Assembly: GCA_964602455.1 (NCBI GenBank)
Contig: CAZRRG010000002.1
Coordinates: 1,100 to 65,099, forward strand
From: an uncultured Eubacteriales bacterium
GTDB taxonomy: Bacteria; Bacillota; Sulfobacillia; Fermentithermobacillales; Fermentithermobacillaceae
Length of the DNA stretch: 64,000 nucleotides
Direction of reading: 5' to 3'
The notes beneath the pieces are model-generated. The model saw nothing but the letters and a program-made list of their open reading frames with translations. It was not told the origin of the DNA and did not search any database. This document shows, piece after piece, positions 1-55,547 of the stretch. Positions within the stretch are counted from its first letter, which is position 1; each line of letters begins with the position of its first letter. The translations under genes were made by a program, and so were the position numbers.

Positions 1-631
1 GGTGGAATATGGCGCCCATGTTGTCGAGACTGGTCGCAAGCACGTTGTCAGCGGCGATGAACTGGGGGAAAGCCGTGCGGACCAGGTCGAGAACGTCATC
101 GGTCCTATAAGCCGGTAGAGCCGCAAGCGACACGTGCTTCTTTATCCCGTAGATGTGGGAGACCCCGGGTTCCACAGTCCTGCTGGCGAAGATGAAGGTG
201 TTTGTCTCCGCCACGGTGACGTCGGCACGGCAACCTGCACGTTCCAGGTTGGCACGGAACGCCAGAGCCCCTCCGGTCCTGCCCGGGTTCAGGACGACCA
301 CCTGGCCGTCAACCAGATTCGGCGCAAGCATCTTCGCAACGTCTCTATGCCCCGAGGCCGGCACCGTGACCATGACCACATCGGCGCCACTGCATGCTGC
401 GGCTATATCCCTGGTCACGACCACCGGAACGCCAACGCCCTCGTTCGCTCCGTGAAGGCGTATGCCGCCCCTGGAGTTAATCGCGTCGACCTTTTCCGGC
501 GACCGGTTCCACAGCTTTACCCTAAAGCCGTGGAGAGCCAGGTATCCGGCCATGGCCTGCCCGCCGTTTCCAATACCCAACACAGTAAATGACGGAGCGC
601 CCGCAAAGACCCTTCCATCGTGAATAGTCAT
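1..631 (-). CDS. Opine (octopine/nopaline) dehydrogenase-family NAD(P)-dependent oxidoreductase, N-terminal part (C-terminus lies beyond the window start)
   Basis: My own translation of the minus strand: MTIHDGRVFAGAPSFTVLGIGNGGQAMAGYLA... It has a Rossmann GxGxxG motif, and 'LNPGRTGGALAFR' and 'TSLDNMGAI' resemble Arthrobacter opine dehydrogenase. Its ATG overlaps the upstream gene's stop codon (ATGA). Confidence 0.6.
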   Translation of the reverse strand, partial: MTIHDGRVFAGAPSFTVLGIGNGGQAMAGYLALHGFRVKLWNRSPEKVDAINSRGGIRLHGANEGVGVPVVVTRDIAAACSGADVVMVTVPASGHRDVAKMLAPNLVDGQVVVLNPGRTGGALAFRANLERAGCRADVTVAETNTFIFASRTVEPGVSHIYGIKKHVSLAALPAYRTDDVLDLVRTAFPQFIAADNVLATSLDNMGAIFH

Positions 632-1596
632 GAAGCAGCCCTCCTTTGTAGCGCACCCTCCAGCACTCGCTCCACGAGCGACCGGAACGGCATCCCGCAC
701 TTCTCCGCCATGCGGGGAAGCTCGCTGTAGCCCGGCATCAAGCCGGGAAGAGTGTTAATCTCAAGGACGTAAGCCTTGCCTTCGGGCGATACCCTGATGT
801 CTACCCTTCCAACGTCGGTGCAACCGACGGCCTTGAAGGTCCTAACCGCCAGGTCCTGAATCTCCGTCGCCAGCTCGGCCGGTATATCTGCAGGACACAC
901 CGGCACAACGGCGTCGCGCGACTTGACGTCGTAGGTGTACATGCCGCCCTTCTTGAACACGATCTCCTCGACCGGCAGAGCCTGCGGCTCAGGGTACCCG
1001 ACAATGCCGACGGTGAACTCCCGCCCGCTGATGTACTCCTCCACCAACACCGTGCCGTAGATGTCCGCTATCAGTCTCACCTGCTCGACGGCCGCGTTAG
1101 CATCCGCAACGACGCTCTTTTCCGAGATACCTACACTGGAACCCTCGGCAGCAGGCTTTACGATGACCGGATATGTCAGACCGGATAGGGCATCAGGCTC
1201 CAATGCATCTGGGTCCTCGATGACTCTGAACCTGGGGGTTGGGATCCCGTGTATGCCCATGATGGCCTTGGTCAGGTGTTTGTGGAGGCCCAATACGTGA
1301 CCGCGGGTTCCGGAACCCGTGAAGGGGTAGCCTGCCATCTCGAGCAATGCGGCTACGTTGGCCTGGTCCCTTTTGGAACGGTAGCCGGTAGCGAGGTTAA
1401 AGACTGCGTCAGGATTGGCCTCGCTCAGCCGGTGCAACAGAGACGGCCCTACCTCCACCAATGTAATCTTGTGGCCCAGCTCGCCGAGCGCTTTGCAGAC
1501 AGCGCCGGCAGTCACAGAGGACTGCTCTTCGGCGTGCGGGTCCTGGTCGTAGAAGGGTGAGTTCCTCCGGTTGACCACGACGCAAATGTGCGGCAA
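628..1596 (-). CDS. D-alanine--D-alanine ligase family ATP-grasp protein (divergent paralog)
   Basis: The C-terminal half is Ddl-like (EEYISGREFTVGIVG; VLEINTLPGLMPGYSELPRMA). The N-terminus lacks the canonical GGxSxEHxVS motif. The likely start is a TTG 6 nt after a GGGAGGAA RBS (the ORF could extend to 1656). Confidence 0.7.
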   Translation of the reverse strand: MPHICVVVNRRNSPFYDQDPHAEEQSSVTAGAVCKALGELGHKITLVEVGPSLLHRLSEANPDAVFNLATGYRSKRDQANVAALLEMAGYPFTGSGTRGHVLGLHKHLTKAIMGIHGIPTPRFRVIEDPDALEPDALSGLTYPVIVKPAAEGSSVGISEKSVVADANAAVEQVRLIADIYGTVLVEEYISGREFTVGIVGYPEPQALPVEEIVFKKGGMYTYDVKSRDAVVPVCPADIPAELATEIQDLAVRTFKAVGCTDVGRVDIRVSPEGKAYVLEINTLPGLMPGYSELPRMAEKCGMPFRSLVERVLEGALQRRAAS

Positions 1597-1898
1597 AGGG
1601 CATTCCTCCCAGAAATGTTGTTCCAGCAGGCGCAACAAGGTAAGCCGCGGCCTCAAGAAGGCAATATCTTGAAAGACCGCGTGCGGTGTGTGACCGGGAA
1701 GAGGCTCTTACGGGGCGAAAACGCCACGGGACGAGGCCGCCTTCCCTTTCGACGCTTACGAGGTTAGCTGACGGGCTCGGGCTGAAAAGGATTAGCCCTA
1801 CGCGAGGCGCGATTAGCCCCTAAGAAGTGGGTCCCCCGTTCCCCCTGTGGCAGGGAGATTCAGCGATAAGGCGCGTACAACGCTGCTGGTCAAATTCC

Positions 1899-1928
1899 AT
1901 TATACTTCCAGCTTGCATTTACTGTCAA
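1899..1928 (-). promoter_or_regulatory. Near-consensus sigA promoter (TTGACA-18-TATAAT) upstream of a ~290-nt leader of the ddl-like/opine-DH operon
   Basis: Read on the minus strand: cTTGACAgtaaatgcaagctggaagTATAATgg. Confidence 0.5.
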
Positions 1929-2031
1929 GCTAGAAAAGCCCTGGACAAGCCCACAGCGGTTTCCAGTTTGAACCAGATGGGCCCCTATTGCGTCTGCCAG
2001 GACGCGTAAACACGCCTTGACTGCGCTTAGG

Positions 2032-3426
2032 TTACTTCCTCCTGAGCATCCTGGAGTGGGCTAGCACGGCCCAAGGATGGTCCTTGCACTTCCTCTCATC
2101 GAAGTAGAAGCGCAGCACTTGCTGCTGGCCCTGGGCTTGGAAGAACACGGTCCGCTCGTCGCTGGCCTTAGCCGGGAACTCCATCCCTTCCAGCGTGACC
2201 ACGAGAGAGCCGTCTTTCAACGCGAGGGTGATGTTCCCGCCCTCGTCGCTCCTGTAGTTGCCCTCGAACCTGGACAGCGCCGCGGTATCATGCACGCGCT
2301 CAGTTTCGACGCTCTTCATGGTGTCGAGAGGCAAGCCAAGCGCCGCGTTGACTGCGGCGAGCCAAATGGCGGCGGCAGGGACAGAGGTAACGTTGGTGAG
2401 GGCGGCGACTGTTATGCCCTTCTCGGGCACGAAGCCGAAGTTGGAGGAGACTCCGGGCTGTCCTCCGCTGTGCTCCACCAGTGTTGCTCCGGTGTTGGCG
2501 TAGTTCTTTGTTGTGACAAGCGCGAGGTTGTAGTCGCTTACCCTGGTTGTGCGGTACATGGGCGTCGTCCACATTCGCCTTTGGCCGTCATCGGAGACGA
2601 TGCGGACACCGTTGGCCGCGACTCCCCCGCCGAGGTAGATCTGTCCGTACTTCATGAGGTCCAGCACGCACGAGCGTACTCCGCCCCCTACTTCGTAGGT
2701 CCCCAGGGCCGGCCAGGGCTGCTCCTCGTGTTTTCGCGTCTTGGGGTTATAGATGTACGGCGTCGACAAGTCCCCGATCTTGGGCAGTTCCTCGAGGTTG
2801 TAGGTCGACCTGTGCATGCCTGCGGCGTCGAGAATGTGCTGGGTCATGTAACGCCTGTACAGCTGCCCGGTCTTGCTCTCAATGATGTGCCCGTTTAGAA
2901 GGAACGTGTCGTTGCAGTAGCTGAAGTACTCCCCGGGTTCGCCCAGGAGCTCGTACTCCGCTCCGGCCAGGTACTCAATGTGGCTCTGGAAATCCGTAAT
3001 CTCCTCGCGTCTCCTCATCGGAGGAAGTCCCGTGGTGTGGGAGAGGATGTGGCGCATCTTGACTTCCCACATGTCCTTCGCGCCGGCAAGCCTGAAACCG
3101 GGGATATGATCGACCACCGGGTCATCTACGGAGATCAGTCCCCTGTCGGCCAGCTGGGCTATGGCCATGGAGGTAAAGGACTTGCTGACTGACGCGCAGC
3201 CGAAGATGGTGTTTGGGGTAACAGGCTCTTTGGTCTCAAGGTTCTTGACGCCGAACCCCTTTGCGTAGAGGACGTCCTTTGGCCCGGCAACCGCTACCGC
3301 GGCCCCGACGATGTAGTTTTCCTCCATAACGCGAAGCACGTATTCTTCAAATGCGGTCCAGTCCGTTGCCACGACAATCCCCTCCGTTTTCATTGCGAAC
3401 CAAATTGCTGACCCAGCCGCCAACAC
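2032..3426 (-). CDS. Beta-lactamase-family serine hydrolase (class C / D-aminopeptidase-like)
   Basis: SxxK motif (ASVSKSF) ~60 aa from the N-terminus. Length ~450 aa. Confidence 0.75.
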   Translation of the reverse strand: MLAAGSAIWFAMKTEGIVVATDWTAFEEYVLRVMEENYIVGAAVAVAGPKDVLYAKGFGVKNLETKEPVTPNTIFGCASVSKSFTSMAIAQLADRGLISVDDPVVDHIPGFRLAGAKDMWEVKMRHILSHTTGLPPMRRREEITDFQSHIEYLAGAEYELLGEPGEYFSYCNDTFLLNGHIIESKTGQLYRRYMTQHILDAAGMHRSTYNLEELPKIGDLSTPYIYNPKTRKHEEQPWPALGTYEVGGGVRSCVLDLMKYGQIYLGGGVAANGVRIVSDDGQRRMWTTPMYRTTRVSDYNLALVTTKNYANTGATLVEHSGGQPGVSSNFGFVPEKGITVAALTNVTSVPAAAIWLAAVNAALGLPLDTMKSVETERVHDTAALSRFEGNYRSDEGGNITLALKDGSLVVTLEGMEFPAKASDERTVFFQAQGQQQVLRFYFDERKCKDHPWAVLAHSRMLRRK

Positions 3427-3447
3427 GCGCCGGCCGCTCCAGCCTGA

Positions 3448-5121
3448 TTATACTCCCACTGCCGCTCCCTCGCGCCTGGGGTCGGCTCCTCCTCGTAACT
3501 CCCCTGACTCGGGGTCCCGCAGAATCCCGTGGGCGCCGCCAAAGTAGTAGTCCACCGGCCCTCTAACTACGAGCGTGTGTCCCATCCTGCGCAACTGGTC
3601 CTGAACAGCTGCGTCGAAGCGCCCCTCAATGTGCAGCTCGGCGCCGTCGGTGTGGATCCGCGGGGCGTCGATGGCCTCCTGGATACCCATACCGTGGTCG
3701 ATAATGTTTGAGAGCACCTGGACAACCGCGGTGATGATCCTCTTGCTCCCGGGTGAGCCCACCGTCAGGAATGGGCGACCGTCCCTCAAGACGACCGTGG
3801 GGGACATGCTCGAAAGCGGTTTCTTGCCGGGCGCGACGCTGTTGGGGTGGCCGGGCACAGGGTCCAGGTCCTGCATCTGGTTGTTCAGTATGAACCCGTA
3901 TCCGGCCAAGACGGATGCGCACCCGAAGAAGCTCTCAACAGTCTGGGTCAGGGCGACGGTGTTCCCCGCGCTATCCATGACCGAGAGATGGGTAGTACTG
4001 TCACCCTCGTAGGCAGCCGGCCGGCCTGCTCCTTGCTTCGACGCGCGGGCAGGATCAATCGATGTCGCCCTGTCCGTGGCGTAAGCTTTGCTGAGAAGTC
4101 CCGCCAGGGGAATGTCCACGAACGCAGGGTCGCCCATGAACGCGTCGCGGTCCGCGAAGGCCATCTTGAACGCTTCGGCCAGGAGATGCAGGTTAGCCGC
4201 GGAACCGTGCCCCATGCCGCGGACGTCAAAGGCTTCAAGCATGTTGAGGATCTCGATGACGTGCGTGCCTCCGGAACTAGGAGGCGGGGACGATATGATC
4301 TCGTAGCCCCTGTACGTCCCCCTGACGGGCTTCCTAAGTGATGGCTTGTAGGCCGAAAGATCGTCGAAGCCGATGAGCCCACCGTGGACTTGCATGTCCC
4401 GGACCAGGGCGCGGGCGACCTCGCCTTCATAGAACACCCCGGTGCCCTTCTCACCGATAAGCCGCAAGGTCCTGGCGTAGTCAGGGTTGACCAGCGTGTC
4501 GCCCACGTCGTAAGGCTCGCCGTCTTTCAGGTAGATCCTCGCGGTCTTGGGGAACATGCGGAGCCGGTCCAGGTTCCGCACCATGGCATCCCTGAGGAAT
4601 GGACCGACTGTGATGCCGCTCTCTGCCAGCCGGGCGGCGGGTTCGATGACGTCGGACAATGACATAGTCCCGTACATCTCCAGCGCCTTGGCCAATCCCG
4701 CGACCGAGCCGGGGACGGCCACCGCCTTGTGCCCGGTCTCATTTGCCCGTCCCACGACCCGGCCGTCCACAACCTGGTACATGTCGGGGGTAGCCCGGAG
4801 AGGGGCCACCTCTCTGTAATCGATGAACACAGTCTCACCGGCGCCGGCGGGCGGCGTGACCATCCTCACCAGCATGAAGCCGCCGCCGCCGATTCCCGAG
4901 GTAAAGGGTTCAGCAACTCCAATTGCAAACGCTGCGGCAACTGCCGCGTCGACAGCGTTGCCGCCGCGCTTCAGCATTTCCACGCCCGCTTGCGAGGCGA
5001 GCGGGTGAGCGCTAGACACCATTCCTTGCTTTGAGACTACCTCTACCTGGCCTGCCACCGGAATCTCCCCCGCCGGACCGCCGATATCTTCCGCTAGATT
5101 TCCTATGCCTGCCCCATCCAC
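3448..5121 (-). CDS. ggt: Gamma-glutamyltranspeptidase
   Basis: Ntn-hydrolase motifs: TTHLSVMDSAGNTVALTQTVESFFG and GGTHVIEILNMLE. Confidence 0.85.
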   Translation of the reverse strand: MDGAGIGNLAEDIGGPAGEIPVAGQVEVVSKQGMVSSAHPLASQAGVEMLKRGGNAVDAAVAAAFAIGVAEPFTSGIGGGGFMLVRMVTPPAGAGETVFIDYREVAPLRATPDMYQVVDGRVVGRANETGHKAVAVPGSVAGLAKALEMYGTMSLSDVIEPAARLAESGITVGPFLRDAMVRNLDRLRMFPKTARIYLKDGEPYDVGDTLVNPDYARTLRLIGEKGTGVFYEGEVARALVRDMQVHGGLIGFDDLSAYKPSLRKPVRGTYRGYEIISSPPPSSGGTHVIEILNMLEAFDVRGMGHGSAANLHLLAEAFKMAFADRDAFMGDPAFVDIPLAGLLSKAYATDRATSIDPARASKQGAGRPAAYEGDSTTHLSVMDSAGNTVALTQTVESFFGCASVLAGYGFILNNQMQDLDPVPGHPNSVAPGKKPLSSMSPTVVLRDGRPFLTVGSPGSKRIITAVVQVLSNIIDHGMGIQEAIDAPRIHTDGAELHIEGRFDAAVQDQLRRMGHTLVVRGPVDYYFGGAHGILRDPESGELRGGADPRREGAAVGV

Positions 5122-5125
5122 CCGC

Positions 5126-7696
5126 CTACATAAGGCAGTTGAACAGGAACTTGAACGTGCCGTGGGCTTGCGCCCTGAACTGCGTCCTGAAGCCGATGAG
5201 GACTACCTCGCCCTTACCGCACTTGGCGGCCACCATGCACGGCTTGCCAGCCAGCTTCTCGCTGCCGATAAGCCACCCGCTCTGCAGGAGGTCCGTCTGC
5301 GGGTACTCGGCGACAATCCTGTAGTCATCAGCCCTATCCATCTCGGTGATCTCGAATGTCGGGCTCCCCATGTTCAGCACCAGGGCGTTCTCCGGCATCC
5401 CGTATGCGAGAGGATCGCTGTTGTTCACCTTCACGTGCAGCGTGGAGCCGTTGCAGTAGAAGTCCCTCCAACTGGAGTTGGCGACGACGTTGCGCACCTT
5501 GAGGCCGCAGGTGTCGATTGCCCAATCGGAGGACGTGTCCATGGCCACAAGCCTGCCGCCCGCCTTCACGAACTCTGCGACCGCGTTCTGTCCTTCCTTG
5601 CCCAGCCCGCTCCTGTACTCCGGCGGCAGGTTTGGGAGCGGCCAAGCCCTGGCGTTGGGATTGGTCTCGGGAACGTTGTCGGGACCCATGAGCAACCTGG
5701 TCCGGTCTCCCGGTATGATGAGCACGTCAAGTTTCTCGGCGAGGTTGCCGCTCTTAATGTCGGCGTCCATCACAGTCACGTACGGCACCTCAAACTTGTC
5801 GAAAACGTAACGGGTCCAGCCCTCGTCCATGTTCCCGCCCCAGTACCGCTGGTACATGCCGATGCGCAGGGGCTTAAGCTCATGCTTGGCGACCTCCGGT
5901 AGTCCGCTCACGGGCATGAACGGCACGCCGGTCTCGCTCGCGAGGCCCGCGATGACTTCCTTGTACTTGGGAGCGTTCTCAACGTAGAAGGCGCCTGCTA
6001 CTGGAGCGCAATCGCACGAGGATCCGTTCTCGCACACCTTCATCGGACCATCCAGCCGCCAGAACTTGGCGCCGTTCTTCTGCAGGCGGTTCACTGCGAG
6101 ATAGGTATCATTGAGCCTCGGGTCCAGGAGGTATCCTGCCGCCTCCTTGACCTCCACCCTAGGTCTGGAGACCTCCTTAACCACCTCGTACTCGCACTCA
6201 AACCTGTAATCGATGGCGGCCACGTTGACACCCATGAACTCGCCGATCGTGTCGGTCGCGGTATCGTACATAATGGGGGAACCGTCAGGATTCCTGGTCC
6301 AGTAACTGTCGGGATAGAAGGTCCTCCCCAGCAGGAACCTGAGAACGCCCATCTTTGGCTGGTCCATCGTGAGGAAGTAGGTCCCGGCCGGGAAGACCTT
6401 GCCGCAGGCGCGGAACTCCTCCTTTGCTATCTTCACTTCGGCGCCTTGAGCCAGCATCAGTTCGACCAGCTTCAGGGCTGTGAGCGGGTCGTTGTTCTTC
6501 TCCGGAGTGATGGCGAAGGCGTAAGGCTTGCCCTCCCTACCCCTTTCGGTCTGGCGGGACGCCTTCAGATACGCGTTCCACAGAACCTTCTCCTTGTACT
6601 TTGCGCAGATGTCCAAGAGGGCCCAAGCGGCGATCTTCTGCTGTTCCACGATATCCCTGAGACGCCACCACCCGCCCGGCCAGGGATGCGGGAAGTTGGT
6701 CTGGGCTTCATACTTGGGCATGGTCTTCTGGCTCGCGCCGCGGAGCTGGTGCGGGTGGACGTACATCGGCGTGGCGAGTTTGGCGCTAGCCGACTCTGTC
6801 AGCATGCCCGCGATGTTGTGGTGGGTCGTGATCCAGTGGAACCCGAAGTGGCCCCATCCGGGGTACTGGGCGCCGTTGAGGATGCCGGTCTTGCCTTTTT
6901 CCTCAAGGGTGTACGCCATATGGGCGCCGAACCAGGAATCTTCGCGCCAGACCAGGGGATCGGCGTGGGGACGGATGGCGTCGGAGTACGGCGCAAGGAA
7001 CAGGCGAGCCCCGTAGGGCCCCATATGGTGATGGTCCTGGTAGGCCTGAGGATGCCAGTCGGTGTACAGCAGCTTGGCCATGTAACGCGACTCGGGAAGA
7101 TTCAGAGCGAACGCGTCGCGGTTGTTGTCGTGTCCGGCATACTTCTGGTAGAGGAAAGGCGTGCTGCAGCCTTCCCACTCGGTTCCCAGATACTTGTTGT
7201 ACCAGTCGGTGACCATGATCTGGCCGTCGGGGTTGAAGCAGGGGACCATCAAGAAGATGACGTTGTCCAATATCCTCTTGTTGTCCTCACAGTCGCAAGC
7301 CAGCAGATCGTAAGCCAGCTCCGGAGCCATCTGGGTGCCGCCGATCTCGGTCGCGTGCAGACTCATGCTCTGGCAGACGACCGCCTTTCCCTCCTTAACG
7401 AGGGCCTTGACCTCATCTTCGGTGAGCCCCCGCGGGTCCGCGATCTTGCCGTTAATCTCCCGGTGACGCTCCAGGTTCGCGAGGTTCTCGGGAGACGAGA
7501 TGATGGTCAGTAGGAAGGGATTGCCCTCCGTAGAGGGTCCCATGTCTGTGACCTTAATCGCATCGGACTCGGACTCAAGCTTGTGGAAGTACTCGACGAT
7601 CTTGTCCCAGCGGGCCATCTTCCTATCGGAACCCAACCTAAACCCAAAGAACTCTTCCGGAGAGGTGATCGTGGGTCGCGGAGTCTTTGCGGCCAT
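5126..7696 (-). CDS. M14-family zinc carboxypeptidase, large (856 aa), predicted cytoplasmic
   Basis: HATEIGG (HxxE) and NPDG motifs. ATG start with an AAAGGAG RBS. Confidence 0.7.
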   Translation of the reverse strand: MAAKTPRPTITSPEEFFGFRLGSDRKMARWDKIVEYFHKLESESDAIKVTDMGPSTEGNPFLLTIISSPENLANLERHREINGKIADPRGLTEDEVKALVKEGKAVVCQSMSLHATEIGGTQMAPELAYDLLACDCEDNKRILDNVIFLMVPCFNPDGQIMVTDWYNKYLGTEWEGCSTPFLYQKYAGHDNNRDAFALNLPESRYMAKLLYTDWHPQAYQDHHHMGPYGARLFLAPYSDAIRPHADPLVWREDSWFGAHMAYTLEEKGKTGILNGAQYPGWGHFGFHWITTHHNIAGMLTESASAKLATPMYVHPHQLRGASQKTMPKYEAQTNFPHPWPGGWWRLRDIVEQQKIAAWALLDICAKYKEKVLWNAYLKASRQTERGREGKPYAFAITPEKNNDPLTALKLVELMLAQGAEVKIAKEEFRACGKVFPAGTYFLTMDQPKMGVLRFLLGRTFYPDSYWTRNPDGSPIMYDTATDTIGEFMGVNVAAIDYRFECEYEVVKEVSRPRVEVKEAAGYLLDPRLNDTYLAVNRLQKNGAKFWRLDGPMKVCENGSSCDCAPVAGAFYVENAPKYKEVIAGLASETGVPFMPVSGLPEVAKHELKPLRIGMYQRYWGGNMDEGWTRYVFDKFEVPYVTVMDADIKSGNLAEKLDVLIIPGDRTRLLMGPDNVPETNPNARAWPLPNLPPEYRSGLGKEGQNAVAEFVKAGGRLVAMDTSSDWAIDTCGLKVRNVVANSSWRDFYCNGSTLHVKVNNSDPLAYGMPENALVLNMGSPTFEITEMDRADDYRIVAEYPQTDLLQSGWLIGSEKLAGKPCMVAAKCGKGEVVLIGFRTQFRAQAHGTFKFLFNCLM

Positions 7697-7759: not shown

Positions 7760-8458
7760 CTAAGCAATGAGGAGCCTGCGGATCTTCTCCAGGGCAAGTG
7801 CGATCGCGACAATAGAGACCAGCATCAGAACGGTTTTGCCGGCTGTCCCGATGAGTCCGGCCTGGTAGCCCAGAGGGCCCAAGTTCAAGAGCGCGTGCAG
7901 AGCCACGGCATAGCCATATCCGCCCAGCGTTGACGTTGTACCGCCAAGCCGTGAGGCCGCGACCGACGTCATCACGCCGTGAGCAAAGGCAACCACCAGG
8001 CGTTCTGAGATGTACCCGGAGAAGTAGATAAGAGGCAGCGCCTCGCTTGCCTGATCGCGGGATATGGCCCAGGCCAGGTACCACGCCTCGCCCAAACCGA
8101 ATCCAAACCCCGAAGCCATGCCGAATCGATACGCTAGAACTGGGTGTAGAAGCGCGAGGCGAGACTCGGCCAGACCCAGAGGTAGGAGCTTCGCCGCCTC
8201 CTCTGTGAGTGGGGAGATCAGAAGCACGAGGATCAGGAACCGCCACGGCGGCGAACCGGAGCCGGAGGGCCAGGTCAGGCGCTCCGCCGCCAGGGTCACG
8301 GGGGCCTTTACGAACGAGTTGGTCAGGTAACTCAGTGGTAGTCCGATGATGAACGCGGCTAGGACTTGGCGGTCAAGCCTCCACGTTCTCCAGGTGAGCG
8401 CTGATGCCAGGCCGAGGACGATGGTCACGACCAGCGCCGCCCCGGCTATCCCGCTCAC
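7760..8458 (-). CDS. prsW: PrsW-family intramembrane protease
   Basis: Polytopic membrane protein with EEAAK, FAHGVM and HALLN motifs. Confidence 0.6.
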   Translation of the reverse strand: MSGIAGAALVVTIVLGLASALTWRTWRLDRQVLAAFIIGLPLSYLTNSFVKAPVTLAAERLTWPSGSGSPPWRFLILVLLISPLTEEAAKLLPLGLAESRLALLHPVLAYRFGMASGFGFGLGEAWYLAWAISRDQASEALPLIYFSGYISERLVVAFAHGVMTSVAASRLGGTTSTLGGYGYAVALHALLNLGPLGYQAGLIGTAGKTVLMLVSIVAIALALEKIRRLLIA

Positions 8459-8461
8459 ACG

Positions 8462-9049
8462 CTACCTCTCCTTCATGTATCCCCTAAGTTGGGCGAGGAA
8501 AGCGGCCTCGTCTGCTGGCGTCACGCCGTACTTCTTCGTGGCCGTCTCTATCAGTATGATCCCGCGGAGCGACCGGGTTGCGCACATGATGACGTCGCCG
8601 GTACCCGCATAGGGGATCTTGCCCAAGGCGAAGCCCGGGAACCGGGTACTGGAGTGGATCGTCATGCGGAGATCGGTCTTGCCAACGCTCACGATCTCCG
8701 GCACGGCCACGTTGTACTTCACGGAACCGCAGAACAGCGAGAGCCTATCGGGCGAGAGTTCGTAGCGGACTGTCGTTGACCAGCCTGCAAGCAGCATGGC
8801 GCACACGCCGAGGATGACCAGCGCGGCAGCAGGTATTACCGCCGCAGCTCCGATCCCGCTTCCGCTCCCTACTACGGCCATCAGCGCAAGGCCCGCCAAC
8901 ACGAACATGAGGATCGCAGCAAGGCTTAGCCAAAGCCATCCCAGCGAGCGGGCGGCGGGGTACTTCGTTGATTCCGTTTCCATGCTCTCACCCCCAGACC
9001 GAGTGCTGCCAAGGTTCCAACGAATCTCCATCGATAGACCATTTGCCAC
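8462..9049 (-). CDS. Bacterial PH-domain (bPH_2/YdbT-like) membrane protein
   Basis: Two N-terminal TM helices followed by a PH-like domain. The true start may be the internal METEST. Confidence 0.45.
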   Translation of the reverse strand: MANGLSMEIRWNLGSTRSGGESMETESTKYPAARSLGWLWLSLAAILMFVLAGLALMAVVGSGSGIGAAAVIPAAALVILGVCAMLLAGWSTTVRYELSPDRLSLFCGSVKYNVAVPEIVSVGKTDLRMTIHSSTRFPGFALGKIPYAGTGDVIMCATRSLRGIILIETATKKYGVTPADEAAFLAQLRGYMKER

Positions 9050-10818: not shown

Positions 10819-10894
10819 CGGGGAGTGGCGCAGTTGGTAGCGCGCATGGTTTGGGACCATGAGGCCGCAGGTTCAAGTCCTGTCTCCCCGACCA
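10819..10894 (+). tRNA. tRNA-Pro (anticodon UGG), CCA encoded
   Basis: A manual cloverleaf gives a 7-bp acceptor stem, GCGC D-stem, anticodon loop TTTGGGA with G37, and T-loop GGTTCAAGTCC. The sequence continues ...CTCCCCG A CCA. Confidence 0.9.
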
Positions 10895-28229: not shown

Positions 28230-28576
28230 TGGTGGAGGCGGAGGGAATCGCACCCTCGTCCGTTGATAACCCAGTCTCAGTCTCTACGAGCGTATCTCCG
28301 GATTTGATCTCGCCGACCGCAGCGCCCCGGAGCGGGCTCTACGTTCCGCCAGCCCGGAATTGCGTTCCCTTGAGGGTCCCGGACGTCCCCCTCAAGGTAT
28401 CTCTCCTAGGTGACGGTGACTCCGGGATAGGAGAGAAGTCTCCCGGCTCACCGGGCTGCCTAATTAGGCAGCCAGTGCGTAACTGTTGTTGGCAGTTATG
28501 GTTTTGCCGTTTGTTGGGTACGGCACCCATGCTCGCTGCTCAGACCCGACTACCAGCGTCGAACCTGGTCGCCCCC
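28230..28576 (-). ncRNA. ssrA: tmRNA (SsrA)
   Basis: Minus-strand 5' end GGGGGCGACCAGGTTCGACG and 3' end GGACGAGGGTGCGATTCCCTCCGCCTCCACCA. Internal tag ORF GGC AAA ACC ATA ACT GCC AAC AAC AGT TAC GCA CTG GCT GCC TAA, with the stop inside a hairpin. It lies immediately downstream of smpB. Confidence 0.85.
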
Positions 28577-54422: not shown

Positions 54423-55547
54423 TCACTCCACCCGGCGAACTTCCCTCACTTCGTCTGCTTGCCGCGTTACCGCCAGCTCGACCAACCGTTGGACGAGGGC
54501 CGGGAACGGCAGTCCCGATGCCTCCCACAGCTTGGGGTACATGCTGATGCTGGTGAAGCCTGGTATCGTGTTGAGCTCGTTCACGAGGACGGCGTCCGTC
54601 TCCGGGTCGACGAAGAAGTCCACCCGGGCCATCCCCTTGCATCCGGTAGCCTTATATGCGGCAACAGCCACGTCCTGTACGCGCCGCATCAGCTCCGGGG
54701 AGAGAGGCGCGGGTATCGCGTACTGGGTGGTCTCGTCGATGTACTTGGCCTCGTAGTCGTAGAACTCGCGGCCCGGCAGTATCTGGCCGGCGACCGACGC
54801 CACCGGTTCGTCGTTTCCGAGGACACTGCACTCCACCTCAAGAAGGCCTTCCTGGGAGGGCTCAATGAGCGCCCGCGTGTCATACAGAAACGCGGCGTCC
54901 AGCGCCTTTGCCATCGCGTCCGGGCGCTTCACTTTGGTTACTCCGAGGCTGGAACCCGAACCCGATGGCTTTACGAAGACAGGATACTTGATGAGTCCGG
55001 AAAGGGCGTTCAGGACCTCGGGGCCCTTCGTCCTCCAGGCGAATCTCTCAACCGTGAATCCGGGGACGTGTGGAACGCCGTGGGTCTGAAGCAGCCGCTT
55101 GGTCGTGCTCTTGTCCATGCAGACGGCCGACGCCAACGGAGGCGCGCCGATGTAGGGGATCCCCGACATCTCCAGGAGCCCCTGTACGGTCCCGTCTTCT
55201 CCATAAAGCCCGTGGAGCACGGGAAAAACGGCGTCTACAGGGACTTTGTACAGGCCGCCGGGCCCCTCCACCCAAAGCCCTTTTCTCGATGGGTCGGGGA
55301 GTATTGCGCAAGCCGGACCGAGGTCCGACGTGACAACGGCCGCCCGGTTACCCAGGAACCCGGAGCAGTCGCCCATGAAAACCCAGTGTCCATCCCTGGT
55401 AATGCCTGCTCCCACAACATCCATGCCGGTCTCCAGAGCGGCGCGGTATATCGAGCGCGCCGAGAGCACCGATATCTCGTGCTCTCCAGATCTGCCGCCG
55501 AACAGAAGACACAATCTTGTTTGGTTCACCGATACCACCCGCTTCAC
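54423..55547 (-). CDS. ddl: D-alanine--D-alanine ligase (canonical)
   Basis: (M)KRVVSVNQTRLCLLFGGRSGEHEISV... Full Ddl. GTG start 17 nt after the mtaB stop. Confidence 0.92.
   Translation of the reverse strand: MKRVVSVNQTRLCLLFGGRSGEHEISVLSARSIYRAALETGMDVVGAGITRDGHWVFMGDCSGFLGNRAAVVTSDLGPACAILPDPSRKGLWVEGPGGLYKVPVDAVFPVLHGLYGEDGTVQGLLEMSGIPYIGAPPLASAVCMDKSTTKRLLQTHGVPHVPGFTVERFAWRTKGPEVLNALSGLIKYPVFVKPSGSGSSLGVTKVKRPDAMAKALDAAFLYDTRALIEPSQEGLLEVECSVLGNDEPVASVAGQILPGREFYDYEAKYIDETTQYAIPAPLSPELMRRVQDVAVAAYKATGCKGMARVDFFVDPETDAVLVNELNTIPGFTSISMYPKLWEASGLPFPALVQRLVELAVTRQADEVREVRRVE

Follow-up and report, generated by a model that had tools for sequence, protein, structure and literature searches.

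The DNA analyzed here, a 64,000-nucleotide stretch of an uncultured Fermentithermobacillaceae bacterium (contig CAZRRG010000002.1; hereafter the window), carries at its left end, on the minus strand, the beginning of a three-gene, translationally coupled operon. It codes for a Ddl-like ATP-grasp ligase (gene 1), an opine dehydrogenase (gene 2) and, just beyond window position 1, a B12-domain mutase-like protein (gene 3), and its leader is assigned by sequence to the cyclic di-adenosine monophosphate (c-di-AMP) riboswitch class. Our best reading, which we hold with middling confidence, is that of a c-di-AMP-repressed, NADPH- and B12-dependent biosynthetic pathway, the chemistry of which we infer and which would probably make an opine-like osmolyte. 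The elements of the operon that fall within the window are the following.

1899..1928, minus strand: sigma-70-type promoter, TTGACA-18 nt-TATAAT, with 12/12 consensus matches
1737..1875, minus strand: c-di-AMP aptamer (ydaO-class; ydaO/kimA leader, RF00379), identified with Rfam, model positions 1-134 of 134
1597..1736, minus strand: predicted expression platform, from minimum-free-energy folds
628..1596, minus strand: gene 1, Ddl-like ATP-grasp ligase, 322 aa, TTG start at 1596, ribosome-binding site (RBS) GGGAGG at 1610-1605
1..631, minus strand: gene 2, CENDH-type opine dehydrogenase, 5' 210 codons, running off the window at position 1

The Rfam scan of the whole window returned three matches, namely a tmRNA, one tRNA and a full-length c-di-AMP riboswitch at 1875-1737 (RF00379 covariance model, 90.3 bits versus a gathering score of 38, E 7.8e-20). 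The original prediction, made from the letters of the window without database searches, had described a near-consensus promoter followed by an unusually long leader with repeated motifs that might be a riboswitch, and both parts are borne out. The promoter at 1928-1899 is the sole promoter-like site within positions 1-2100 (shuffled sequences average 0.6), and the Rfam alignment places the repeated GGGCTAATC motifs as the two halves of the pseudo-two-fold-symmetric aptamer, which includes two GGGCUAAUC-type half-sites. The order on the minus strand, with the promoter followed by the aptamer and then by the start codon at 1596, is that of a cis-regulatory 5' untranslated region.

A custom covariance model made from nine homologous leaders recovered 21 leaders and scored 159.7 bits on that of the window (1880-1731). 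Among these 21 leaders, 94.5% of the cells that should be base-paired are so, versus 33-54% (maximum, 53.6%) when the partners are slid, ten aptamer pairs have compensatory changes on both sides, and the observed score was reached by none of 500 shuffles, all in an alignment that was fitted to the model and is biased towards the structure. The fold of the whole leader is not more stable than that of shuffled sequences (z = -0.45); hence, the riboswitch is recognized by the conservation of its sequence and structure and not by its folding energy.

The same element accompanies the relatives of the operon. In each of the eight Bacillota loci tested first, the Rfam c-di-AMP riboswitch lies directly 5' of the gene that opens the operon, and the custom model found it in 20 of the 23 Bacillota loci having enough upstream sequence, at a distance of 30-230 nt from the first operon gene and regardless of whether that gene is the ligase or the dehydrogenase. 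A scan of the leaders of the window and of these 20 loci showed a terminator hairpin with a U-tract 3' of the aptamer in 15 of the 21. Twelve low-GC loci share one conserved, almost identical hairpin, ACUAUGG-AACC-CCAUAGU followed by U6-8, directly 3' of the aptamer. Its carriers include loci L016, L017, L018, L020, L021, L023, L025, L039, L043, L045 and L054 (e.g., L054:2303-2336), and terminator-like hairpins are also found at L015, L013 and L091. The conserved low-GC hairpin is lacking in the high-GC clade that includes the window. A hairpin and U-tract after the aptamer is the usual architecture of an OFF switch. By experiment, c-di-AMP riboswitches are OFF switches, and in Bacillus thuringiensis the binding of c-di-AMP promotes termination, which is relieved when potassium limitation lowers c-di-AMP (PMC6488665). 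The regulon of these riboswitches covers the transport of potassium and amino acids, the remodelling of the cell wall, and osmotic shock (PMC7266159).

For the high-GC lineage of the window, the folding models point to translational control, probably by sequestration of the RBS. In minimum-free-energy folds, CCUCUUCCCGG (1704-1694) has two possible partners, either the 3' tail of the aptamer (GGGAAGG) or the RBS region CUGGGAGGA (1612-1604). Compared with known ydaO/kimA leaders, such as that of the B. thuringiensis kdpFABC operon, the window leader has the same full-length aptamer, repeated motifs and location in the 5' untranslated region after a sigma-70 promoter, and the OFF-switch architecture with a terminator is seen in relatives of its operon. 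It differs in that the window copy lacks a clear intrinsic terminator and its action may be translational, and in what it precedes: ydaO/kimA leaders are usually followed by potassium or osmolyte transporters or by cell-wall hydrolases, whereas the window operon codes for a pathway of soluble enzymes.

The first gene of the operon is one of two Ddl-family genes in the window, as had been predicted. From the sequence, its start is most plausibly TTG 1596. An identical 322-aa ligase has been called on seven public contigs and is the version on record; for a 342-aa open reading frame starting at 1656 no record was found. The protein matches Pfam Dala_Dala_lig_C (PF07478, 1.2e-44), and Dala_Dala_lig_N (PF01820) was found neither in it nor in its 120 best homologs, in agreement with the predicted Ddl-like C-terminal half and non-canonical N terminus. 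It falls under every NCBIfam Ddl and Van cut-off (at best 209.1 versus 243, and 174.8 versus 245.65), and its closest PDB matches are all Ddl or Van ligases, with Ddl enzymes at E 1e-34. The second Ddl-family gene, at 54423-55547 on the minus strand, is a canonical ddl, as it had been called, with all the canonical residues and a score above the NCBIfam Ddl subfamily cut-off (388.5 > 262).

We mapped the residues of the ligase subfamily on Escherichia coli DdlB, with the reference sequence verified against PDB 1IOV. In DdlB numbering, the ATP, Mg and catalytic residues K97, K144, E180, E187, K215, R255, D257, E270, N272, G276 and S281 are invariant, and S150, which belongs to the S150-Y216 triad of the D-Ala site, is retained. 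The following DdlB residues that define the D-Ala sites are replaced in the subfamily.

E15: replaced by A, S or G as part of a DPHAxEQ motif
H63 with the GEDG loop: ATGYRSK(K/R)DQA, with T in place of H63 and SK(K/R)DQA in place of GEDG
Y216: variable (S/A/F/R)
L282: E or D

Thus, the window ligase shares with DdlB and VanA the ATP-grasp fold, PF07478 and the ATP, Mg and catalytic residues, and differs from them by the absence of a PF01820 signature and by its subfamily motifs (DPHAxEQ, ATGYRSKKDQA and YSE) at the positions of the D-Ala site. Since the catalytic residues are kept, those of the D-Ala site are replaced and the Ddl and Van cut-offs are missed, the residue pattern is that of an ATP-grasp ligase that is active, has a rebuilt site for the first substrate and uses another carboxylate, and not of a D-Ala-D-Ala ligase. 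The role in D-amino-acid dipeptides that had been proposed for this enzyme is weakened by the same residues.

The stop codon of the ligase (TGA, 630-628) overlaps the start of gene 2 (ATG, 631-629) in the ATGA junction that had been noted. Within the window, gene 2 matches only Rossmann-domain families, and the original prediction had left room for a glycerol-3-phosphate or ketopantoate reductase instead of an opine dehydrogenase. Extension through contigs with an identical ligase (L001-L006) decided for the latter family: the complete gene codes for 378 aa that match Octopine_DH (PF02317, 1.1e-44) and, over the full length, the N-(1-D-carboxyethyl)-L-norvaline dehydrogenase (CENDH) of Arthrobacter sp. 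1C (PDB 1BG6, E 5.9e-85). The residues H202, R292 and D297, which we take to be the catalytic ones of CENDH, align to H210, R300 and D305 of the gene 2 product. Among 69 family members, the histidine is conserved in all, the arginine in 68, and an aspartate or glutamate is found at the third position in 68. After the second Rossmann strand, the dehydrogenases of the module have an invariant WNR(S/T) (WNRS in the window enzyme; N42-R43 conserved in at least 97%), where the NADH-dependent CENDH has WDID. From general knowledge of 6PGDH-type Rossmann folds, this motif suggests the use of NADPH, and therefore a reductive, biosynthetic direction is favored. CENDH stands alone and has no known physiological role, whereas the window dehydrogenase shares its operon with a B12 mutase-like enzyme and lies behind a riboswitch.

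Gene 3 lies directly 3' of the dehydrogenase (L001:3553-5235) and codes for 560 aa. Genes 2 and 3 overlap by 22 nt, or by another ATGA if gene 3 begins at Met7. PDB B12 domains match the N terminus of its product at E 1.5e-5, and the profile matches are confined to this domain; the remaining ~430 residues had no sequence match, and NCBIfam has no family for the protein. Sequence searches could not place the large domain, but fold comparison of the AlphaFold model (pLDDT 90.5) identified it as a GlmE-type TIM-barrel catalytic domain. Its modeled fold is that of an adenosylcobalamin isomerase made as one chain, in which a GlmS-like domain is joined to the front of a GlmE-like barrel. In 71 sequences of the family, C15, H17 and G20 are invariant, H17 being at the position of the cobalamin-ligand histidine and the cysteine aligning to the aspartate of GlmS (SDCHAVG). 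Further invariant residues (R155-H156-H157, D180, R234-Y236, E298-N300, Q337, R377 and H410) cluster where the strands predicted for the barrel have their C-terminal ends, and the three invariant arginines presumably resemble the carboxylate-binding arginines of GlmE. Compared with glutamate mutase (GlmS/GlmE; 1CB7/1CCW), which has two subunits, the protein of the window operon is a single polypeptide with the B12 domain at its N terminus, and it is obligately paired with an opine dehydrogenase.

Gene 3 is followed by a cluster of tRNA genes and, beyond it, by unrelated housekeeping genes, so that the operon consists of three genes. The same three-gene operon is present at L010, L011-L013, L070 and L091 (the complete genome of "Ca. 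Fermentithermobacillus carboniphilus"), with ligase identities of 48-87% (87% in L010); hence, the pairing of ligase and dehydrogenase is conserved in relatives. With the mutase-like protein as the query and one genome per species, we collected 80 loci, and neighborhoods were clustered over 81 loci. The opine dehydrogenase adjoins the mutase-like gene in ~74 of the 80, in the order dehydrogenase-mutase in Bacillota (Fermentithermobacillaceae, Tepidanaerobacteraceae, Tissierellales, Alkaliphilus, Proteiniborus and Halanaerobiales) and mutase-dehydrogenase in Chloroflexota and a few metagenome-assembled genomes (MAGs) labelled Actinomycetota. That the two genes adjoin in both orders and in different phyla argues strongly for a functional pairing. 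The conserved core of the module is therefore the opine dehydrogenase and the B12-domain, glutamate-mutase-E-like protein, with the ligase as an accessory. Neither a MutL-type reactivase/chaperone nor methylaspartase was found near the module in the 81 loci.

Of the 81 loci, 18 have a Ddl-like ATP-grasp gene no more than 7 kb from the pair, and in 17 of them it is directly beside the pair, in three arrangements: 5' of the dehydrogenase or mutase gene (as in the window), 3' of the mutase gene, or 3' of the dehydrogenase gene. The copy at L014 is ~3 kb from the pair and on the opposite strand. In 16 other loci, all from Chloroflexota, the pair is joined by an asparagine-synthase-like gene of one of two types, the first of ~500 aa with the N-terminal glutaminase cysteine (MCGI), and the second of ~450 aa with that cysteine replaced (MSGI, MAGI or MTGI) and a shortened amidotransferase domain. 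Both types are found in tandem at L049 (L049:10757-12277 and L049:12292-13641), and another example is L087:9745-11148. Since two unrelated types of ATP-dependent carboxylate-amine ligase have been recruited, an amide-forming step on the pathway product is suggested.

Two other features of these neighborhoods were observed. In Halanaerobiales (Halothermothrix orenii and Anoxybacter fermentans), an EF-G paralog lies upstream of the pair and a regulator of the Crp/Fnr family downstream of it (L007:11635-12315 and L090:9659-10345), flanks that may be an alternative regulatory solution. Near the operon in a Tepidanaerobacteraceae locus, there is a group II intron D1-D4 fragment (L014:516-629; RF02001, 38 bits).

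The pathway that we propose would work as follows. At high concentration, c-di-AMP would bind the aptamer and turn the operon off, through the intrinsic terminator in the low-GC relatives and probably through RBS sequestration in the high-GC lineage of the window; when c-di-AMP falls, as it does under potassium limitation or osmotic upshift in the Firmicutes studied, the operon would be expressed. The mutase-like protein may act on an amino or keto acid that is acidic and glutamate-like and rearrange its carbon skeleton, and the NADPH-type opine dehydrogenase would condense a 2-keto acid reductively with an amino acid to give a compound of the N-carboxyalkyl (opine) type. The ligase would then make an amide on one carboxylate of this compound, a role that the asparagine-synthase-like enzyme seems to take in Chloroflexota, and the product would be a small organic solute for osmotic or potassium homeostasis. 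A biosynthetic direction is suggested because of the NADPH motif and the ATP-consuming ligases, and an N-carboxyalkyl amino-acid-type product from a glutamate-like precursor because a GlmE-like barrel is combined with an opine dehydrogenase. The osmotic or potassium role is proposed because, when c-di-AMP is low, its riboswitches turn on functions that concern potassium, amino acids and osmoprotectants along with wall remodelling (PMC7266159; PMC6488665).

A more far-reaching form of this proposal is possible but rather doubtful. Gene 3 would represent a new family of adenosylcobalamin-dependent carbon-skeleton mutases (Cys-x-His-x-x-Gly), with thousands of members in anaerobic Bacillota and Chloroflexota. 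An NADPH opine dehydrogenase would be its constant partner, and the two, helped by ligases of the Ddl-like or asparagine-synthase-like type, would produce a compatible solute that is new, of opine type and possibly amidated or cyclized. In Bacillota, a fall in c-di-AMP would directly switch on this synthesis. A small amino-acid-derived osmolyte built by an ATP-grasp ligase and an asparagine-synthase-like enzyme is already known, N-acetylglutaminylglutamine amide (NAGGN). The likeness to its pathway (the AsnO amidotransferase and the Ngg ATP-grasp-type ligase) is a functional analogy only; the window module has no GNAT acetyltransferase domain, and its opine dehydrogenase and B12 mutase-like protein have no NAGGN counterpart.

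Several observations weigh against the osmolyte pathway. Its chemistry is entirely inferred for all members of the family, none of which has a known substrate or product. The B12-binding domain of gene 3 (PF02310) scores 27.9 bits, under the cut-off of 32.1, the aspartate of the canonical DxHxxG is an invariant cysteine in the family (GDCVHVAG), which leaves cobalamin binding putative, and the identity to GlmE is only 13%. On the side of regulation, the scan of the window leader found no classical intrinsic terminator, and the RBS-sequestering helix appears in folds both with and without the competing tail. No riboswitch was found at Halothermothrix and Anoxybacter (Halanaerobiales), at one Proteiniborus contig or at any Chloroflexota locus, a search for other riboswitches 5' of the pair in these groups gave nothing significant, and there is none near the stand-alone ATP-grasp homolog of Anoxybacter. 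Because the c-di-AMP riboswitch is missing from Chloroflexota, Halanaerobiales and the one Proteiniborus locus, control by c-di-AMP is lineage-specific and not intrinsic to the module. The host organisms come mostly from digesters and sediments and are not obligate halophiles. Finally, the regulation fits an envelope role equally well, as c-di-AMP riboswitches also control cell-wall genes.

In such an envelope role, the operon would make an unusual amino acid or a depsipeptide-type block, to be coupled by the Ddl-like ligase into a precursor of peptidoglycan, by the logic of VanH feeding VanA, and expression at low c-di-AMP would answer envelope stress. Asparagine-synthase-like enzymes are known as peptidoglycan amidotransferases, and the solved structures nearest to the ligase, all of them Ddl or Van, fit this idea. 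So does the regulation, since cell-wall remodelling genes are commonly under c-di-AMP riboswitches (PMC7266159; PMC9960051). However, the D-Ala-binding residues of Ddl are not conserved in the ligase, a canonical ddl is present elsewhere in the window, the ligase is missing at most loci, unlike the dehydrogenase-mutase pair, and neighborhood clustering found no VanX, VanY, VanRS, Mur or other cell-wall genes conserved beside the module; hence, we consider this role unlikely. The pathway could also run in the catabolic direction, with the dehydrogenase oxidatively cleaving the C-N bond of an imported opine-like or glutamate-related compound and the mutase converting the released branched amino acid (e.g., 3-methylaspartate) to glutamate, or working in reverse, as happens when glutamate is fermented. 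In Clostridia, the classical role of glutamate mutase is catabolic, and opine dehydrogenase reactions are reversible; moreover, the hosts are amino-acid-fermenting anaerobes, and ABC amino-acid transporter genes are near the operon in several loci. These transporter neighbors vary between loci, though, the NADPH-type WNR(S/T) motif favors reduction, and the repeated recruitment of an ATP-consuming ligase or asparagine-synthase-like enzyme would be unusual in catabolism. In addition, the regulator is c-di-AMP and not a substrate-responsive one, and no methylaspartase, mesaconase or citramalate lyase genes were found nearby by neighborhood clustering, so that catabolism appears just as improbable as a role in the envelope. 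An opine-type metallophore similar to staphylopine or pseudopaline, in which a CntM-like opine dehydrogenase finishes a metal chelator, is extremely unlikely. CntM-type enzymes do belong to PF02317 and use NADPH, but the closest solved relative of gene 2 is CENDH and not CntM, and the regulation is by c-di-AMP and not by a metal-responsive element. In the staphylopine CntKLM cluster, CntL and transport genes adjoin the opine dehydrogenase, whereas neighborhood clustering found no nicotianamine-synthase-like CntL, histidine racemase, exporter or metal-importer genes conserved beside the window module.

The remaining alternative is that of the original prediction, in which the ligase and the opine dehydrogenase act together with the products of three genes immediately upstream on D-amino-acid-containing or gamma-linked peptides, such as peptidoglycan stem peptides. 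These genes are as follows.

2032-3426, minus strand: beta-lactamase-fold gene, a generic PF00144 member
3448-5121, minus strand: GGT gene
5126-7696, minus strand: M14 gene, 856 aa, with Peptidase_M14 (2.9e-12) at residues 34-167 only

The three are present as they had been described, co-directional with the operon and adjacent to it in the window and in the closest MAG (L010). The beta-lactamase fold predicted for the first stands (PF00144), and the protein is far under the D-aminopeptidase model cut-off. In the M14 protein, the remaining ~690 residues had no Pfam or NCBIfam match. A coherent set of the three genes with the pair is not supported: all three lie upstream of the promoter and riboswitch of the operon, and they accompany it only in L010 and in contigs of the same species, and in none of the other ~80 loci. 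In "Ca. Fermentithermobacillus carboniphilus" (L091), the operon is flanked by M23/M50 peptidase and radical-SAM genes instead. The upstream peptidase genes are thus unrelated neighbors. The joint processing of such peptides is largely refuted by this synteny and very unlikely, and the c-di-AMP class of the leader argues for osmotic, potassium or envelope homeostasis over the salvage of peptidoglycan peptides.

The following features of the window were also observed.

7760-8458, minus strand: 232-aa predicted membrane protein, no Pfam match
8462-9049, minus strand: 195-aa membrane protein with a bacterial PH domain (bPH_5, 1.2e-11), adjoining the 232-aa protein
10819-10891, plus strand: tRNA gene (Rfam, 70 bits)
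28230-28576, minus strand: tmRNA gene (Rfam, 146.7 bits)

The family of gene 3 has been noticed before. Zhang, Rodionov, Gelfand and Gladyshev (2009; BMC Genomics 10:78; PMC2667541) predicted a new family of B12-dependent proteins, present in 11 genomes from Clostridia, Lactobacillales, Chloroflexi and Thermotogae, always with an octopine/nopaline dehydrogenase (pfam02317) beside it and, in several genomes, with a D-Ala:D-Ala ligase and an asparagine synthase nearby. They assigned no function to it and did not mention ydaO. This is the same protein family and neighborhood as that of gene 3, and we found neither later papers that take it up nor any account of its function. Nor did we find any paper tying ydaO/c-di-AMP riboswitches to opine/octopine dehydrogenase, ATP-grasp, glutamate mutase or B12 proteins, although the supplementary gene lists of Block 2010 and Nelson 2013 may include such a link. 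Hence, the riboswitch class and the gene neighborhood were known already, and the regulatory link between them appears to be unreported.

Genes of the operon carry misleading annotations, such as "D-alanine--D-alanine ligase," "methionine synthase" and "methylmalonyl-CoA mutase cobalamin-binding subunit." Control by a c-di-AMP riboswitch in many Bacillota lineages provides the first physiological handle on this orphan family: the operon is expected to be on at low c-di-AMP, under potassium limitation or osmotic upshift, and the product to look for would be a small molecule whose synthesis depends on NADPH and B12. It also adds a pathway of soluble enzymes to a riboswitch regulon otherwise described as consisting of transporters and wall hydrolases. 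To our knowledge, adenosylcobalamin-dependent isomerase families are few. If the more far-reaching form of the proposal were true, the family would bring a reaction new to B12 enzymes and an osmolyte new to bacteria, and for the first time a pathway of biosynthetic enzymes would be placed in the regulon of c-di-AMP riboswitches.

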